In this document: in pieces, positions 1-27,095 of the stretch
Layout of the letters: each line of letters opens with the position of its first letter
Position numbering within the stretch: the first letter of the stretch is position 1
DNA from: a virus
Lineage: Duplodnaviria > Heunggongvirae > Uroviricota > Caudoviricetes
Length of the DNA stretch: 27,095 nucleotides
IMG/VR virus record: IMGVR_UViG_2537562194_000033
Strand: one strand, 5' to 3'
Made by a program: the position numbers and the translations under genes
Notes under the pieces: generated by a model
What the model saw: the letters and a program-made list of their open reading frames with translations, nothing else
Databases searched by the model: none
Told to the model about the DNA's origin: nothing

Positions 1-501
1 CCGATATGTCTTCCATGCAGTCAGTAACGATGCCTCTTCCTCCGTCGCAATATCCAAATCTACGGCATCCTGAAGTGGCGCAATATGCTCACTGGCCATC
101 TGCATCAGGCTGTTTTTTGTTTCTTCCGCCTTCCGGATCCGGAACAGTTTTTCTGCTTCTGCATCTTTCACCCAGGCTGTGCCGTTCCACTTCTGAAACT
201 CCCCTTCCGGGGATAACCAGGTGACATTTTCCGGTAATGGGCCAAGTTCAGAAATAAATAACGCGTCGCCGGAAGCCACGTCATAGACGGTTTTTCCCCG
301 ATGGTCTTCAACGAGATTCCACGATGCCTCATCACTGTTGAAAACGGCCACGAAGCCAGCCGGAATATCTGGCGGGGCAATATCGGTACTGTTTGCAGGC
401 AGACCTGTATGAGGTGGAATGTATGCATCACCTTCACCAATAAACTCATTGGTTCCGGTCAGTAGATTATAAATTTTTATGGTCCGTGATTGTTCACTCA
501 T
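1..501 (-). CDS. tail fibre assembly protein (Tfa/gpG-like), 3' end cut by window edge
   Basis: Minus-strand frame is open from ATG at 501-499 to position 1 (checked every in-frame triplet for stops). Start lies 12 nt downstream of the tail fibre gene stop. Translation begins [20 protein letters not shown] and contains an ...[22 protein letters not shown] segment typical of phage tail fibre assembly chaperones. Absent from the ORF track because it has no stop inside the window. Confidence 0.75.
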
Positions 502-512
502 TCTGAATGTCA

Positions 513-2645
513 TTATGCAAGCCTCACAATATAGTTAAATGCGATGTTTTTTACGGTGTTTTCTGCGTTCCCCGTAGCATTAACGGTGATGGTGTGTCCG
601 TGGGGACCAATAATGACAGAATGGGCATGAGCACCAATGCCGATAGTGTGGTTATGGGCACCGATATATACATTGTGAGCATGCCCTCCTGCGCTCGACG
701 TGGTACCTGTACCTAACGCAGCGTTATAACCGGCTGATACACCATTCCCCGCGCCAGTGTGACCAACAGGTATATTGTGTGAATGAGCTCCTGCGCTATT
801 TGTGGTTTTTGTGCCGTAATCAAATGAACTGGTCGTTTTAGTACCGTAATCAAACGACGATGTGGTTTTCGTCCCCAAATCAGTACTGGATGCGCTGGCG
901 CTGTGGGTGTGCGATTTAATGCCGTCCTGTTCCTGAGACAATACGGCACGACCACTGGCAGGTTTGCCCTTGATAGTCCAGCCACGCATATCAGGAATAA
1001 CGCCTGACGGATAAGCGACTGCAAGTTTCGGGTATGCAGATTTGTCAAAAGTCTGCCCCTGCATCAGGGCATAACCAGACGGAACGGTATCTGATGGCCA
1101 CGGAATCGGTGCACCGACTGGATAAAACTCTTCAGGAGGATGAGCCGAGGTGTAAAGCTGCGCCCACGGCGACCAGTTTGCGTCGGTCGTATCCCGTCGT
1201 GAACGAATAAATGCCGGAGCATGAGCACCGCTTATACCACTCCAGCCGATGAGTAATTCGCCTTCGCCAACGGCTGTCATCCCTTTCAGGTGAATGATAT
1301 TTCCATACGTTGTTGGATATCCGTTGTTATACGCCTCGTATAACTCCAGACCTGTGGCCCCCTGCATATTATCTGTCAGGGCGGTCAGCCGACCTTTTGA
1401 AGCCAGATTAACTGACGATACTGCTGTCCCATCTGACGGTAACGCCCCGATCTCTGATGCTGTTGGCTTATTCCTGGAGTTATAGTCCCTTCGCCAGCCA
1501 GGAGCATAAGCATCACCATGATTAATATAAGTAAATTGAGCATTAGGGATGCCTTCACCGCTGGATGTACTCGGTGTGGTAATGCGTATGGTCATTGCGC
1601 CGCGGGTGCCAATAACTTCCACAACAGCACCTGCAAGACAAATACTTCCGCAACCTGTATCTGTAATGACCTTATTATTTGCATAAGCCCATGAGCCTTT
1701 GCACATCCAGTAAGGATGGTTAAATGCCCCCTGACTCTCTAGCCAAAAAATCAACTGCGCAGTTGTCCATGCTTCACTATCTCCACCAATATTCAGCTCT
1801 GCACTATATGCACGGCAGGCACCGATATTTTTCGTAAAGGTGTCTTTATCAGAGATATCCTCACCATTCTTAGCTTTCTGCAGACGTTTTTCAGCATTGT
1901 CATAGGCAGCTTTTACTGCATTTGAAGTTGCCGCCAGCGTTTCAGATGTACTGTTGGTTGCACTGCTGAGCTGGACTATCCCTTTTCGTGCCGTCGTGGC
2001 GTCCTGAGCGGTATATTTTCCGTTAGCCAGGTCATACGCGGCCTTAACCGCTTTCGGCGTTGCGGCCAGCGTTTCAGAATCGCTGTTAGTGGCGCTACTG
2101 AGTTGAACAAAGCCTTTTGCGGTCAGCGAGGCATCCGGGTGACGTCGTGACTGTTCATGCTCTTTCAGTTTGTCATCCACGTAATCCACTGTGGCCATCA
2201 CCATGGTGTTATCCACGGTAAGCGCCACGCTGGCAGTGCTGGATACGGTTAGAATGGTGCGAAATGTTTGTGCACGTCCGGACCCCTCGGCAACGGTTGG
2301 CTTGTAACTTTCGGCAGTATTGCCCACCGCGATTAAATCGCCGTGCTCATCAAATACACCAATTTCCCGGATCCAGAATCCGCCCGTTTCAGGAGGAATA
2401 ACCAGCTCCGCAATAATGCGGTTCTGATGTGTTGCGTCCAGGATGACGCGATTAACAGTGTGTCGCCACACCTCATGCACCAGACGGGTCTGCTTACTGT
2501 CTGGTGTGGGCAACGTGCCGCCACCGTCGCCCACGGCCATATGAGTCAGGCGGACAGGCTTACCATCTGGCGCGGCTGCCTGAGCTAATTTTTTTGCACC
2601 CGTATCGGTGATAACGGTTTTAAATTTTCGTGTTGTGGTATTCAT
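513..2645 (-). CDS. H: tail fibre protein (gpH-like), P2-type N-terminal domain with His-box repeat tip
   Basis: 710-aa ORF with ATG at 2645. The N-terminal ~250 aa resemble the P2 gpH baseplate-attachment domain as I recall it (e.g. [21 protein letters not shown], duplicated SSATNS.SETLAAT blocks). The C-terminus carries tandem [10 protein letters not shown] repeats and five GxHxH motifs. Lies directly downstream of gene I. Confidence 0.9.
805..880 (-). repeat. about 2.5 tandem 30-bp repeats inside tail fibre gene H
   Basis: Nucleotide repeat GTTTT.GT.CCGTAATCAAA... encoding tandem [10 protein letters not shown] units. Confidence 0.7.
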
Positions 2646-14349: not shown

Positions 14350-16575
14350 TTACGAACGAATAGGAATTGATGTTTGCGGTTGAATTGGCACGAGCACCTG
14401 ATTATAAGTACGTAAAATTTCGTTATACAGGTCTTGGTGCTTTGATGCCTTAATGGTAATTATAAGAGCATACTTGATTTTTTCTGCCTTATGGCTGGCT
14501 ATGCTTGCACCGGCCTCACGAGCGTTATAATGAATGTCAAATACAGGATTTTTTAGAGTTGAACCTAGCATGTTCTTCGAATTATGTAAGACGGTCTCCC
14601 ATTTGCCCATGTCAGAACGTCGCTCACTTTCAGTTGAATATTTGGCCAGTTCAAAGAATCCCTTGGTTTCAGCATTTTGTTTTCCGTCTTTGATTTTTGA
14701 ATCATTTGGCCGGAATGTCACTTCCAAACCAGCTTTTGTATAGGAAGCTGGGTCTTGTGGATCAGTGGTTGTTGCATAACAGAAAGTTGCCGCTAAGTTT
14801 ATTCTACCTTTCAAGCCACCTTCAGGTATTGGAAGAGAAGCGCGTAAGTATTTTCCTGGTTTCAATTCACCTTGGTAGACGATACGGGCAACACCATCAG
14901 GGCTGACTATAATGTCGTTCAAGTCTTCAGGCAGTTTTCCCCAGCCAACTTCTGTACAAGGATGATCAAGCTGTTTTGACGCATGAATTAACAAAGCTTT
15001 GATTGCTAGTAGGCTCAAATCGTTCCCTAAAATTGCCCGAACACCAACAGCTGCTCGTAAGGCGTAAGGAGAGGCAAAGCTTGTTCCTAGCTGGGGTATG
15101 ATTACAGGCTTCTTACCTTTACCTAAAACATGAAAGTACTCGTCTGTGTCACCACCAAACGCAACTAAATCCGGTTTCATCACGCCAGGACTTCTGCCTG
15201 GCCCAATGGCGCTATATGGTGCTCGTTTCCATTCCGTATCATTAACTGTATCACAAGCACCAACAGCAAGAGCATTAACGCAATCGGCTGGTACTTGAAT
15301 TCTTGCATTACCAGACTTGCGATCCATTTCTCCATTGTTGCCAACAGCAACAGTCATTAATGTTTCACCATCACTTAACAAATCATCAATAACGGAAGTC
15401 CATGCATGAACTTCCGTATCTTCAATTGGTAGGTCTGGACCTAAACTTAGATTGATAAACTGATACTGGCGAGACAACAATACCTCTTCAATAAAGCCCA
15501 AAGTTCGATATAGTTCCAGCGGATCTTCTTGGCAGGTCTTGTTGTCCAAAACTCTTAAGTTATCAATATAAGAGTATGGTCTTTTCGCTTCCGATTTATT
15601 ACTTATTGGTCCAAATAAAAAGGCTGAAGACACAGCTAAACCATGCTCTAAACCGTCTGGATCATCCTCTGCATGATCGTCCAAAACTCTATAGGATTTT
15701 AACCATGGCGATATAGCGTGCTCTGATGGTAAACCACCATCAAGAATCGCAACTTTTATTTCTGAAGATACGGGGCCCTCAGCAGGTAATTTACACTGAG
15801 CTAAAGGACCGTAGTTCCTTTGTATTGGTCTAATCCCACGCAATCTTGGAACCGGTCTTATTACTCGTACAAATGTAAATTTCGCAAGCTTACTAATAGT
15901 AATTCTATCGGCCTGGATTGGCACGAACCATAATGTACCAGCGGTAAAAGCTAATGAAGTATGTACTTTGATGTTCAAATTTGATGCAAACTGAACAAAT
16001 TGTTGCTGAACCAAGTCTTGTTCATTATCTGACAGTAAATGAACACCAACCTCAAAATACGAAGAATCCTGCTCACCAATGGTAATAATACGCTCTTCGG
16101 GTAAATAGGCATCGAACCGTTCTATGCGTGCAAAATCAATCGCTTCGTCAGAAAACTCTTTGAGTCCTGACACCCAATGAGGTAACTCTTTGAAGGATTC
16201 TCTTTTACCAGCAACAAACATTTGTGTCGTAGTTACTTCTGACACAGTAACTTTTCGCTTCCAGCTTTGAGGCGTAATTTTTACCGTCCTGCTGCCAATA
16301 GACGTTAACCCGGTAGACTTAAGCATTTTTGCAGGAAAAAAAGAGCGTGCAATATAGCTTGGATTCAACGTCAACTTAGCCACAGCATAATCATAAGGAC
16401 ATGCCTGACTGGGTAAATCATCAAAATTTTCTATAGTAGATGCAATTTGCGGCAATAAACGTTGTTTCGATTCGTAAAGAGAATAAACCTCAGCTTTTCC
16501 GGGCACTCTTTTAGGACCAGGAATATCGCTGGTTAATAATTCGCCGCGTCCAATCAGAAAATTAGTTTTCGCCAT
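14350..16575 (-). CDS. S8 subtilisin-like serine protease with uncharacterised N- and C-terminal domains (IetS-like?)
   Basis: 741 aa, ATG at 16575 with AGGAG 6 nt upstream. Catalytic motifs in canonical order: D279 (VAILDGG), H311 (LEHGLAV), N413 (VAVGNNGE), S499 (LGTSFASP). Flanked by ~265 aa N-terminal and ~200 aa C-terminal regions with no motif I recognise. AT-rich relative to the phage core. Confidence 0.85.
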   Translation of the reverse strand: MAKTNFLIGRGELLTSDIPGPKRVPGKAEVYSLYESKQRLLPQIASTIENFDDLPSQACPYDYAVAKLTLNPSYIARSFFPAKMLKSTGLTSIGSRTVKITPQSWKRKVTVSEVTTTQMFVAGKRESFKELPHWVSGLKEFSDEAIDFARIERFDAYLPEERIITIGEQDSSYFEVGVHLLSDNEQDLVQQQFVQFASNLNIKVHTSLAFTAGTLWFVPIQADRITISKLAKFTFVRVIRPVPRLRGIRPIQRNYGPLAQCKLPAEGPVSSEIKVAILDGGLPSEHAISPWLKSYRVLDDHAEDDPDGLEHGLAVSSAFLFGPISNKSEAKRPYSYIDNLRVLDNKTCQEDPLELYRTLGFIEEVLLSRQYQFINLSLGPDLPIEDTEVHAWTSVIDDLLSDGETLMTVAVGNNGEMDRKSGNARIQVPADCVNALAVGACDTVNDTEWKRAPYSAIGPGRSPGVMKPDLVAFGGDTDEYFHVLGKGKKPVIIPQLGTSFASPYALRAAVGVRAILGNDLSLLAIKALLIHASKQLDHPCTEVGWGKLPEDLNDIIVSPDGVARIVYQGELKPGKYLRASLPIPEGGLKGRINLAATFCYATTTDPQDPASYTKAGLEVTFRPNDSKIKDGKQNAETKGFFELAKYSTESERRSDMGKWETVLHNSKNMLGSTLKNPVFDIHYNAREAGASIASHKAEKIKYALIITIKASKHQDLYNEILRTYNQVLVPIQPQTSIPIRS

Positions 16576-16598
16576 ACATACTCCTTATCTATGCTGTA

Positions 16599-17720
16599 TT
16601 ACATTTTTTGACTGTATTTTCTAATTGTATCCCTACTGACTCCGGTTAAGTCTGATATGGCATGCTGGGATAATTTAGAATTTCTTTTTAGAGTAACTGC
16701 AATTTCTTTACGTTCATTCCTGTCTAATTCTGATAAACCATCTTTAATGAACGACCCAATCAACTCTTCATCTGAGGAAATACCTAAAGCGACCGAACGT
16801 CGGAATTTGTTGATAGAACGCTCAATATTACTAAAAGATTCATTTTTGAACATAATAGCCAGTAGATCTATCCAACGTGCAAAAATCGCGTAGTCGGGAC
16901 CCGAAAAGCGTTTAATTGCTTCTTTAATACTTTCGCTATCTGGCTTCTCAAAATTGAGCACTAAATCAAAACGTCTCCATAGTGCTGGATCAATCAACTC
17001 AGCGAAGTTAGTTGCAGCAAGTAGCAAACTAGAAGACGGCCATTCGTCAACCTCCTGGAGTATCACGGTAACAAGTCTTTTTAATTCTCCAACATCAGAA
17101 TCATCACTTCTCTTTTTGGCGATTGAATCAATTTCATCTAACAGAAGAACGCACGGCCCTTTCTTCGCAAAATCTAGAGCTGCCCGAAGGTTATTTCCGC
17201 TTTTGCCCAGATAGCTGCTCATTACTGCCGTTAAATCAAGAACGTAAAAAGGAACCCCTAATTTCTGAGCTAACCAGCTTGCCGTAAGTGTTTTACCGAC
17301 ACCCGGAGGGCCAACAAAAATGGCAGAGCGTGTTGGTTGTAAGCCGAGAGTCTTGAGGCGATCGATGTGCTTCCGCTCAAGAATAATTTGATCCAGTGAG
17401 TCTTCTATCTGACTGGACAGTAGAGGTTTGCTCACAATCTTTTCATTTGGTGCTTTAAGCAAGGTAAGCCTTGACTCCTCGTCCACAGGCATGGTTTGAG
17501 GCAGCGCTTGTTTTGGTGCGGTAACCTTACGCAGGCTTTGTGCAGGCTTTTGCGGTTTATTTCGTAGATAAAGATCAAGCTGCTCGGATAGAGCAGGCAT
17601 AGTTTCCCGATATTTACGCACCAAGCGAGCGACATATAACCGAACGTCATCATACTGTTCAGTTATTACCAGTCTAACTAGTTGGGCTAAATCTGACTGA
17701 ATACCACCTAAGTCGCCCAT
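16599..17720 (-). CDS. AAA+ ATPase with C-terminal HTH-like tail (IetA-like?)
   Basis: 373 aa, ATG at 17720 with AAGAGG upstream. Walker A GPPGVGKT (K143), Walker B VLLLDEID, sensor-1 AATN, RR at 249-250. The last ~25 aa (SKLSQHAISDLTGVSRDTIRKY) look like a helix-turn-helix. Stop is 23 nt before the protease start, so the two are an operon. Confidence 0.85.
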   Translation of the reverse strand: MGDLGGIQSDLAQLVRLVITEQYDDVRLYVARLVRKYRETMPALSEQLDLYLRNKPQKPAQSLRKVTAPKQALPQTMPVDEESRLTLLKAPNEKIVSKPLLSSQIEDSLDQIILERKHIDRLKTLGLQPTRSAIFVGPPGVGKTLTASWLAQKLGVPFYVLDLTAVMSSYLGKSGNNLRAALDFAKKGPCVLLLDEIDSIAKKRSDDSDVGELKRLVTVILQEVDEWPSSSLLLAATNFAELIDPALWRRFDLVLNFEKPDSESIKEAIKRFSGPDYAIFARWIDLLAIMFKNESFSNIERSINKFRRSVALGISSDEELIGSFIKDGLSELDRNERKEIAVTLKRNSKLSQHAISDLTGVSRDTIRKYSQKM

Positions 17721-24203: not shown

Positions 24204-24530
24204 ATGACTAAAAATACTCGTTTTTCCCCCGAAGTCCGTCAGCGGGCGATTCGTATGGTTCTGGAAAGTCAGGATGAATATGACTCACAGTGGGCGGCAA
24301 TTTGTTCCATTGCCCCAAAGATTGGCTGTACGCCGGAGACTCTGCGTGTCTGGGTTCGCCAGCATGAGCGGGATACCGGGGGCGGTGATGGTGGGCTCAC
24401 CAGCGCTGAACGTCAGCGTCTGAAAGAGCTGGAACGTGAAAATCGTGAACTGCGCCGCAGTAACGATATCCTTCGCCAGGCTTCCGCTTATTTTGCGAAG
24501 GCGGAGTTCGACCGCCTCTGGAAAAAATGA
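24204..24530 (+). CDS. IS3-family transposase OrfA (HTH and leucine-zipper part)
   Basis: 108 aa. The -1 frame relationship to orfB at the A6 run (24522-24527) fits the programmed frameshift typical of IS3-family elements. Confidence 0.9.
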
Positions 24531-25417
24531 TGCCACTGCTGGATAAGCTGCGTGAGCAGTACGGGGTCGGACCGGTATGCAGCGAACTGCATATTGCCCC
24601 GTCAACGTATTACCATTGTCAGCAACAGCGACATCATCCGGATAAACGCAGTGCCCGTGCGCAGCACGACGACTGGCTGAAGAGAGAGATACAGCGCGTA
24701 TACGATGAAAATCATCAGGTGTACGGTGTGCGTAAAGTCTGGCGTCAGTTGTTACGGGAAGGAATCAGGGTGGCCAGATGTACAGTGGCACGTCTCATGG
24801 CGGTTATGGGACTTGCCGGTGTTCTCCGGGGTAAAAAGGTCCGTACGACCATCAGCCGGAAAGCCGTTGCCGCAGGCGACCGCGTAAACCGTCAGTTCGT
24901 GGCAGAACGACCTGACCAGCTGTGGGTGGCTGATTTTACTTACGTCAGCACATGGCAGGGCTTCGTCTATGTGGCGTTTATCATTGATGTGTTTGCCGGA
25001 TACATCGTGGGGTGGCGGGTCTCATCGTCTATGGAAACGACATTCGTGCTGGATGCGCTGGAGCAGGCGTTGTGGGCCCGTCGTCCGTCTGGCACCATCC
25101 ATCACAGCGATAAAGGCTCTCAGTATGTGTCACTGGCCTATACGGAGCGACTAAAAGAAGCCGGATTACTGGCATCAACAGGGAGTACAGGCGACTCGTA
25201 TGACAACGCGATGGCTGAGAGCATCAATGGTCTTTACAAAGCGGAGGTAATACACCGTAAGAGCTGGAAAAACCGTGCAGAAGTGGAACTGGCCACACTA
25301 ACGTGGGTGGACTGGTATAACAATCGACGATTGCTGGGAAGGCTGGGCCATACTCCTCCGGCAGAAGCAGAAAAAGCTTATTATGCTTCCATCGGAAACG
25401 ATGATCTGGCAGCCTGA
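24527..25417 (+). CDS. IS3-family transposase OrfB (DDE catalytic domain)
   Basis: 296 aa with an rve-type integrase core (WVADFTYV...HSDKGSQY...[14 protein letters not shown]). Confidence 0.9.
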
Positions 25418-25994: not shown

Positions 25995-26090
25995 GGCCAG
26001 AAAACTGGTTAGACCTGCTTTTTGTCTGGTCTGATTATTGCTGGAAAGAGGCTGGAGAAATTGTAGAGCGGTTCATTGGAGGGCTTCGTA

Positions 26091-27095
26091 ATGTCGATTA
26101 AGAAGCTCGAAGATGGTCGTTATTTGCTGGACATCAGGCCGAACGGACGCAAGGGAAAGCGCGTGCGTAAGGTATTTGACAAAAAATCGGTAGCGGTGGC
26201 CACTGAACGCTACATCATGGCGAACGCTGAAAAGCGGGAATATATACAGGGCTACCGTGATCGTCGAACGCTAAATGATTTGCTTGAGTTGTGGTGGATG
26301 TATCACGGCCAGCACAGGCGTAAGGCGGAAGAAGACCGAAAACAACTGCGCAACATAATCAATGAGCTTGGCGCTGATATGCAGGCTGTGGATCTTGATA
26401 AGCTGAAAATTATCGCGTGGCGTTCTCAAAAGATAGCTGAAGGATTGAAACCGTCATCTGCTAACAGGTACATGAATCGGTTATCCGGAATGTTTACCGT
26501 GCTGAAAAAAATAGGTCTTTGGGATGCAGAACATCCAGTAAGGGGAATTTCTATTCTTTATGTATCTCCACGAGAAATGGCGTTCCTGTCACAGAAGGAA
26601 GTGGCGCTATTGCTCGATACACTGGAGGGCGACTACTGGCGTGTTGCGCTTTTGTGTTTAAGCACAGGGGCGCGCTGGAGTGAAGCTTGTAAGCTTCGTG
26701 GTGAACAGATAGTTCATAACCGTGTAACGTTTCTTGAAACCAAAAATGGCCGGAAGAGAACAGTGCCAATTTCGCAGGCAGTTTGTGAGGCGATCAAAAC
26801 CAGAGAAACAGGCGGCTTGTTTGAGGTGAAGTACCGGGAATTCTGCCTGGCGCTGAAAAGAGTTAAGCCCGATTTACCAAAAGGCCAGGCTGCACATGTG
26901 CTGCGGCATACGTTCGCCAGCCATTTTGTGATGAACGGAGGAAACATTATTGCGCTTCAGAAGATTCTTGGTCACGCAACCATTCAGCAAACAATGGCAT
27001 ATGCGCATTTTGCACCGGATTACCTGCAGGATGCGGTGGCCCTTAATCCGCTGAAAGGTGGCGTAAGTGTCCACGCAGTGTCCACGGGGGATTAA
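26091..27095 (+). CDS. int: tyrosine integrase (P2 Int family)
   Basis: ATG at 26091 (MSIKKLEDGRYLLDIRPNGRKGKR...); the track ORF starts at an upstream TTG. C-terminal catalytic motifs HVLRHTFASHF and ILGH...YAHF. The stop codon TAA is the last 3 nt of the window, so the att site lies just outside. Confidence 0.9.
   Translation: MSIKKLEDGRYLLDIRPNGRKGKRVRKVFDKKSVAVATERYIMANAEKREYIQGYRDRRTLNDLLELWWMYHGQHRRKAEEDRKQLRNIINELGADMQAVDLDKLKIIAWRSQKIAEGLKPSSANRYMNRLSGMFTVLKKIGLWDAEHPVRGISILYVSPREMAFLSQKEVALLLDTLEGDYWRVALLCLSTGARWSEACKLRGEQIVHNRVTFLETKNGRKRTVPISQAVCEAIKTRETGGLFEVKYREFCLALKRVKPDLPKGQAAHVLRHTFASHFVMNGGNIIALQKILGHATIQQTMAYAHFAPDYLQDAVALNPLKGGVSVHAVSTGD

Follow-up and report, generated by a model that had tools for sequence, protein, structure and literature searches.

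The stretch of viral DNA that was analysed (27,095 nucleotides, hereafter the window) was found to carry, at positions 516–1127 of the minus strand, what is very probably a complete collar-needle-head tip of the T4 gp37 / lambda Stf family. The tip sits on a P2-type tail fibre and is accompanied by a lambda-type Tfa gene; its stem would be made of decapeptide and nonamer rungs and its head would be formed by residues 625–652. It is a real but ordinary feature, since the family is already in the literature. Such tips have been known since the early 1990s and their structure was solved in 2010. The structure of the C-terminal receptor-binding tip of T4 gp37 (PDB 2XGF) is reportedly the work of Bartual and colleagues in that year.

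Tail fibre gene and layout of its tip

The fibre ORF matched the tail fibre family phrog_295 with an E-value of 6e-264. Search against Pfam showed that the P2-type N-terminal baseplate-attachment domain was present at aa 6–153 (PF12571, E 7e-54) and that the protein carries two Phage_fiber_2 repeats (PF03406). The upstream neighbours were the V-W-J-I baseplate genes, which matched Tail_P2_I, Baseplate_J, GPW_gp25 and Phage_base_V, and the window as a whole showed the P2 gene order V-W-J-I-H-tfa. With its P2 fibre N-terminus, its I/J/W/V homologues and the assembly gene downstream, the fibre gene was aptly labelled 'H' in the original prediction. In addition, a 99.3% identical stretch was found in a P2-like prophage of Escherichia coli O111 and O104:H4 strains, where the RefSeq annotations 'phage tail protein' and 'tail fiber assembly protein' agree with the P2 gpH-type reading. 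An acetyltransferase gene and tail genes follow tfa in that prophage, and no invertase or second fibre end of a Mu S/S'-type invertible fibre system was found in it. Two small ORFs within 513–900 (507–716 on the plus strand and 551–682 on the minus strand) were taken as by-products of the coding region, with no support found for either.

The fibre gene, its tip module and the adjacent chaperone gene were laid out as follows, with window coordinates first:

513–2645, minus strand: tail fibre gene of P2 gpH type, 710 aa plus the stop codon at 513–515 (ORF list, Pfam, phrog_295)
516–1127, minus strand: T4 gp37 / lambda Stf-type receptor-binding module (collar, needle stem and head), aa 507–710, by homology to 2XGF
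972–1115, minus strand: collar domain, aa 511–558 (PF07484 Collar, E 2.7e-11, 43.7 bits against a cut-off of 24)
897–914, minus strand: first di-histidine motif SHTHSA, aa 578–583, at the base of the outgoing strand and upstream of the repeats
792–881, minus strand: three tandem decapeptides, the His-free part of the outgoing strand, aa 589–618 (30 residues)
852–881, minus strand: decapeptide unit 1, aa 589–598
822–851, minus strand: decapeptide unit 2, aa 599–608
792–821, minus strand: decapeptide unit 3, aa 609–618
774–791, minus strand: His box GAHSHN, the final motif ahead of the head, aa 619–624
690–773, minus strand: putative head or receptor-contacting insert of 28 residues, aa 625–652, at the position of T4 tip subdomain 932–959
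582–689, minus strand: four tandem 9-residue His boxes of the returning strand, aa 653–688, with HxH spacings of 9, 9 and 9 and GxHxH positions GGHAHN aa 653–658, GAHNHT aa 662–667, GAHAHS aa 671–676 and GPHGHT aa 680–685
516–581, minus strand: C-terminal return segment of 22 residues, rejoining the collar, aa 689–710
4–513, minus strand: tfa, tail fibre assembly chaperone gene, of which the first 170 codons are in the window before the gene runs off it (PF02413 Caudo_TAP, E 1.6e-29)

The kinship with the His boxes of T-even and lambda-type fibre tips, which had been proposed as a resemblance, was found to be true homology. In a phmmer search of solved structures, aa 507–710 aligned over their full length with the crystallised tip of T4 gp37 (chain 2XGF, E 1e-77), and BLASTP gave 66% identity between T4 gp37 and the fibre tip over 204 aa (E 4e-86). 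At the DNA level, window 1–1115 showed 89% identity to lambda stf (orf-314) and tfa (orf-194), and the fibre-tfa region of two further E. coli phages was 97–98% identical to the same stretch. A tblastn search showed that the module was present in 648 phage records, which included T4-like, lambda-like, P2-like, Gifsy and Felixounavirus phages. Overall, five hallmarks of the T4/lambda tip family were found here: homology, collar, HxH motifs on both strands, C-terminal return segment and chaperone gene; a homotrimer with octahedrally coordinated metal on its axis would be the sixth. The collar was nearly identical to that of T4 gp37 in the alignment, and T4 gp37 and lambda Stf end in the same 16 residues as the window protein. 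The gp38/Tfa-type chaperone gene lies directly downstream, its ATG overlapping the fibre TAA by one base (TAATG), and the partial Tfa showed 90% identity to lambda Tfa and 36% to T4 gp38.

The five GxHxH motifs of the original prediction were all present. A sixth HxH (SHTHS, 897–914), which reaches past the position 900 at which the feature had been made to end, was missed; it aligns to T4 AHSHS, that is H883/H885 by a count made here from the C-terminal residue 1026. Two of the six HxH motifs lie ahead of the head and four after it, in a register that matches both T4 and lambda. Composition would rarely give so many: shuffling the last 133 residues yielded six HxH in 33 of 200,000 trials, and shuffling the full-length protein did so in 5 of 50,000. 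The nonamer boxes read, in order, GGHAHNVYI, GAHNHTIGI, GAHAHSVII and GPHGHTITV. As for the decapeptides, about 2.5 units had been placed at 805–880; the tandem repeats were confirmed, while three in-frame units at 792–881 replace the proposed count and extent. Tandem Repeats Finder gave a single array at 801–869 with a period of 30, 2.3 copies, 74% matches and a score of 82, and a second repeat search gave three copies at 30-nt intervals. Decapeptides and His boxes were both conserved, with their register, in T4 gp37 and lambda Stf as well as in 238 relatives. The putative head (aa 625–652) was the most variable stretch among relatives and was unalignable to lambda or T4 DNA.

Needle stem and its repeated units

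In T4, the six-stranded needle arises from the chain doubling back at the head (PMC12609058; PMC9659904). The T4 gp37 needle holds seven iron atoms by HxH motifs, including H929; these ions sit inside the fibre, along its axis, and folding depends on the histidines (PMC6957217). By homology with the T4 crystal structure, three chains of the window fibre would exit the collar, extend to a small head and double back to the collar, which would result in a six-stranded antiparallel needle. Each HxH would contribute two histidines per chain, so that three chains would offer six ligands to one axial metal ion (iron in T4). With six HxH motifs, the trimer of the window fibre is predicted to have six axial metal sites and to hold six ions, compared with seven in T4. 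The His-free outgoing decapeptides would run beside the four returning His-box nonamers, one decapeptide and one nonamer making one stem rung, and the insert of approximately 28 residues at aa 625–652 would form the head and contact the receptor. This pairing of decapeptide and nonamer strands was derived from spacing arithmetic and published T4 descriptions, not from coordinates. An AlphaFold2 monomer model of aa 501–710, built on a 45-sequence alignment, gave a pLDDT of 55.6 and a pTM of 0.20, and such a model is unsuited to an intertwined metal-bound trimer.

A different role for the metal sites has been put forward in the literature, where a 'Ferrojan horse' idea is discussed for HxH-bearing fibres (PMC11705849). 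The HxH ladder would then chiefly display iron to engage siderophore or iron-uptake receptors, and the six metal sites predicted in the window fibre would be in line with it. However, the ions of T4 are buried on the axis and its histidines are required for folding, the T4 receptors are OmpC and LPS (PMC6957217), and nothing within the window ties the fibre to iron uptake. Iron display as the main function of the ladder is hence regarded as most improbable.

The number of stem units was followed in 267 relatives, which were gathered by a word-indexed search and an exhaustive HMMER search of cluster representatives. The measure used was the spacing between HxH motifs, which is free of regular expressions; a pattern-based unit count gave approximately 15 apparent violations from degenerate units such as DYDSK and AAVGITTSAF. 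Across 238 relatives, the first and second HxH lay 12+10n residues apart and the number of terminal 9-spaced boxes was n+1, in a sample that consists of the best-scoring matches to the window fibre, many of them closely related, and that holds few independent changes (five n-states and several n=4 solutions). The classes were n=1 (1 protein), n=2 (84), n=3 (141, and 2 more with a spacing of 41, one residue shorter), n=4 (5) and n=5 (1). The apparent exceptions to the rule (4 of 238) came down, on manual interpretation, to a lost or extra histidine. The 181 distinct modules showed 12 spacing patterns, and in 177 of them the outgoing span was longer than the returning one by 13–17 residues. In addition, an optional 14-residue HxH step was found on both strands in all modules but one, in which an H-to-Y change removed the outgoing motif.

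Because the decapeptide count was always matched by the count of returning His boxes, the decapeptide appears to be one half of a paired structural rung in the stem of the needle, and its count would set the number of rungs, not the receptor-contacting head. It is likely that the stem is made of discrete rungs, with an inner rung of 10+9 residues (GxHxHxxxx) occurring one to five times and an outer rung of 14+14 residues, with an HxH on each side, occurring once or not at all, and that its length changes only by whole rungs. The n=4 and n=5 proteins differ in the route by which they were reached, for example by two-unit block duplications in P0134 and P0246, and these different routes suggest several independent paired expansions.

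The paired-rung rule was not found stated in the literature examined and is a small, testable addition. If true, each length change required two coordinated duplications, and the rule predicts that matched repeat changes fold and unmatched ones do not. As a true folding constraint, it would also serve as a simple design rule for needle-length engineering.

The repeat number had originally been proposed as a likely hypervariable site affecting fibre length or host range, which would make the decapeptide array a slippage-prone contingency locus. The array is indeed periodic at 30 nt, and the number of decapeptides in homologues does vary between 1 and 5, so that neither an invariant repeat number nor a lack of His-box kinship was observed. 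However, the three DNA units were only 57–67% identical in frame and shared exact runs of 5–9 nt only. The peptide TKTTSSF of units 1 and 2 was coded differently, including TCG against AGT for serine. Three units were present in all 16 cluster representatives at at least 96% identity. Synthetic two-unit and four-unit alleles were searched against 5,426 complete E. coli genomes. The E-value cut-off was set so that a match had to be contiguous to reach it, which made the test exhaustive, and zero contiguous matches were found for either allele. In a looser search, the best 15 records listed per query all matched in two pieces over 401 nt and so represent the unaltered allele with its three units. 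Of the 5,426 genomes, 212 (254 records) carried 80% or more of the native 401-nt stretch (window 650–1050). The near-identical DNA units and the copy-number polymorphism among near-identical alleles that mark a contingency locus were thus not seen in these comparisons. Moreover, copy number always shifts together with the returning strand, which a single slippage event cannot achieve. With diverged units, three units in close relatives and a number that never changes alone, slippage-driven hypervariability is very unlikely and that part of the original prediction is not supported. Because the units are only 57–67% identical and have been recoded synonymously, the decapeptide array is, judged from its sequence, an old duplication under selection on the protein and not a slippage-prone one.

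Mosaic structure and the head cassette

The fibre was found to be a mosaic, as had been proposed. According to Pfam, structure search and DNA comparison, its N-terminus is that of P2 gpH, its middle resembles Mu S' and its tip is of T4/lambda type. Residues 1 to approximately 165 are of P2 gpH type, aa 173–250 hold the Phage_fiber_2 repeats and aa 507–710 form the tip. Resemblance to the Mu S/S' chimera 8ju3 was limited to aa 203–408, in two aligned stretches (203–277 and 249–408), and aa 249–408 were approximately 88% identical to part of it. Lambdoid phages shared window 1–2108 at approximately 88% identity. Because other phages shared 1–1121 alone, a DNA mosaic junction could be placed at approximately window 1115–1126 (lambda, JL22 and Ro157c2YLVW), exactly at the start of the collar.

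Within the tip, a divergent head cassette was found at approximately 628–830, between blocks 85–97% identical to lambda. Identity to lambda was 85–95% from the collar to unit 2 and fell to approximately 67% within units 2–3 (window approximately 830). It was lost across the head and was 55–63% in the first two nonamer boxes. After the second nonamer (window approximately 627) it was back to 87–97%, through the last boxes and tfa. As read from the DNA, this mosaic pattern fits conserved blocks that flank an exchangeable head cassette.

Recombination at 'His boxes' is an idea said to go back to Tetart and Krisch (1996, 1998). In this case, the decapeptide and His-box DNA blocks would double as homology patches for exchange of the head cassette, which would add to the tip architecture proposed here and not compete with it. 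The drop of lambda identity inside units 2–3 and its recovery past the second nonamer point in this direction. So do approximately 3,600 E. coli records that matched only query positions 188–401 (window 837–1050), with similarity stopping inside unit 2, as it does in the majority of E. coli prophage fibres. In addition, the same head peptide of 23 residues was found within far more diverged flanks in P0045 and P0059, and the tip-tfa cassette was found at 96–98% identity in an 80-kb myophage, a 100-kb phage and a 100-kb plasmid. However, breakpoints at conserved blocks are also expected from a constant stem under selection combined with a diverging head, and the chances for and against the homology-patch role are considered about even.

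The main value of the analysis lies in correct annotation, in that the host-recognition end of this prophage is a T4/lambda-type tip with its chaperone. The cassette of tip and chaperone is a known mover between unrelated phages and has already served as a scaffold for host-range engineering.

Comparison with known fibre tips

The window fibre resembles T4 gp37 in its collar, its outgoing decapeptides, the HxH motifs on both strands, the head insert, the identical C-terminal segment and the chaperone gene downstream. In T4 gp37, the tip subdomain spans residues 932–959 and the collar domain D10 includes residues 1010–1026 (PMC6957217). T4 gp37 has two decapeptides, three 9-spaced boxes and an extra outer HxH pair spaced by 14, which makes seven HxH, whereas the window fibre has three decapeptides and four boxes without the outer pair, and six HxH. 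The spacing pattern is accordingly 32, 14, head, 14, 9, 9 in T4 and 42, head, 9, 9, 9 in the window fibre. The outgoing span was 42 residues in the window fibre compared with 46 in T4, and the net needle length is probably similar, because the extra inner rung would offset the absent outer rung. The head sequence of T4 gp37 is unrelated to that of the window fibre, and the remainder of the window fibre is P2, Mu and lambdoid in character, not T4.

Stf of Ur-lambda (orf-401/orf-314) with Tfa (orf-194) has the same three decapeptides, the same four 9-spaced boxes and the same TAATG overlap. It differs in an extra 14-spaced HxH pair, which gives eight HxH and the pattern 42, 14, head, 14, 9, 9, 9. 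The lambda head is also larger, with 48 residues between the flanking HxH compared with 34 in the window fibre, and across window positions 628–830 (approximate limits) the lambda DNA was divergent or unalignable.

A more distant comparison is offered by the Felixounavirus fibres, in which the needle part alone aligned (aa approximately 590–700, at 35–50% identity). The long and short fibre tips of Felixounavirus Bas63 have a collar, a six-stranded di-histidine needle and a small head, and the authors, comparing six with seven motifs, suggest that motif number scales with needle length (PMC12609058).

Finally, a 'T4- and lambda-based RBP family' of more than 200 phages has been described, with homology confined to the last approximately 215 aa (Magaziner and Salmond 2022, PMC9659904). 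Its members, for example ORF6 of Citrobacter rodentium phage PhiNP, diverge mainly in the specificity region and come with a cognate assembly protein (PMC9659904). The text of that paper leaves HxH motifs and iron unmentioned and uses 'repeat' in unrelated senses only. The window fibre fits the description of this family exactly.

Distribution of the tip–tfa cassette

The gene of the tail fibre (710 aa) and that of its assembly chaperone (tfa) adjoin at the following site:

511-515, TAATG, fibre stop codon overlapping the tfa start codon by one base

This one-base overlap is consistent with the tip and the chaperone travelling and being translated as a single cassette. The tip–tfa cassette was also found at 96-98% DNA identity in two phages and one plasmid (hits H8-H10 and H108):

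vB_EcoM-Ro157c2YLVW, myophage, 80.7 kb
JL22, phage, 99.6 kb
E. coli plasmid, 100 kb

The cassette has moved among very different phage backbones.

Head and His-box variation among relatives

The head peptide of the fibre was nearly unaltered in two relatives of the fibre protein (P0045 and P0059), in which the flanking collar, decapeptides and His boxes were much more diverged than the head. This kept head within diverged flanks hints at either an exchange of the head only or strong selection on the head. A few natural relatives were without one di-histidine motif while the spacing was retained. In P0061 and P0116, a tyrosine had replaced a histidine of the motif; P0222 and P0262 lacked the second HxH. 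Since one di-histidine can be lost naturally with its spacing retained, an individual predicted metal site of the needle may be dispensable.

Other genes of the prophage

Two adjoining genes (14350-17720, minus strand) matched the anti-phage defence pair IetAS:

16599-17720, minus strand, IetA, AAA ATPase (PADLOC E-value 1e-77)
14350-16575, minus strand, IetS, subtilase (PADLOC E-value 1e-51; Pfam Peptidase_S8)

Within the P2-like prophage, the pair lay between the portal/terminase genes and replication gene A, an interval that is a known defence hotspot of P2-like phages. Near the prophage integrase gene, an IS3-family transposase pair was identified, the second ORF of which carried HTH_21 and rve integrase-core domains:

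24204-25417, plus strand, IS3-family transposase pair
26076-27095, prophage integrase gene, continuing to the window end

In the 99.3% identical prophage of E. coli 95NR1 (L003), the gene order was tfa, serine O-acetyltransferase, 'phage tail protein' and tape measure, and the annotation called the tail tube gene frameshifted. The second of these genes may be a cargo gene:

L003 5319-5891, serine O-acetyltransferase gene, just past the left end of the window

Fibre architecture compared with Mu and lambda

Two internal features of the fibre gene were located:

1899-2004 and 2031-2136, direct repeat of 106 nt, copies 71% identical and spaced 132 nt apart
1422-1899, cysteine-containing internal domain (aa 249-408)

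The direct repeat codes for both Phage_fiber_2 repeats of the fibre, and the lambdoid/P2 mosaic junction (~2108) lies inside it. The cysteine-containing domain returned no family in the Pfam search and was ~88% identical to residues 177-333 of 8ju3, a solved Mu S/S' chimeric fibre. In the window protein, this Mu S/S'-like domain is placed mid-fibre, upstream of the T4/lambda tip. At the stop codon of the fibre gene, the one-base TAATG overlap with tfa is exactly that of lambda orf-314 and orf-194 (lambda record L001, position 2238).
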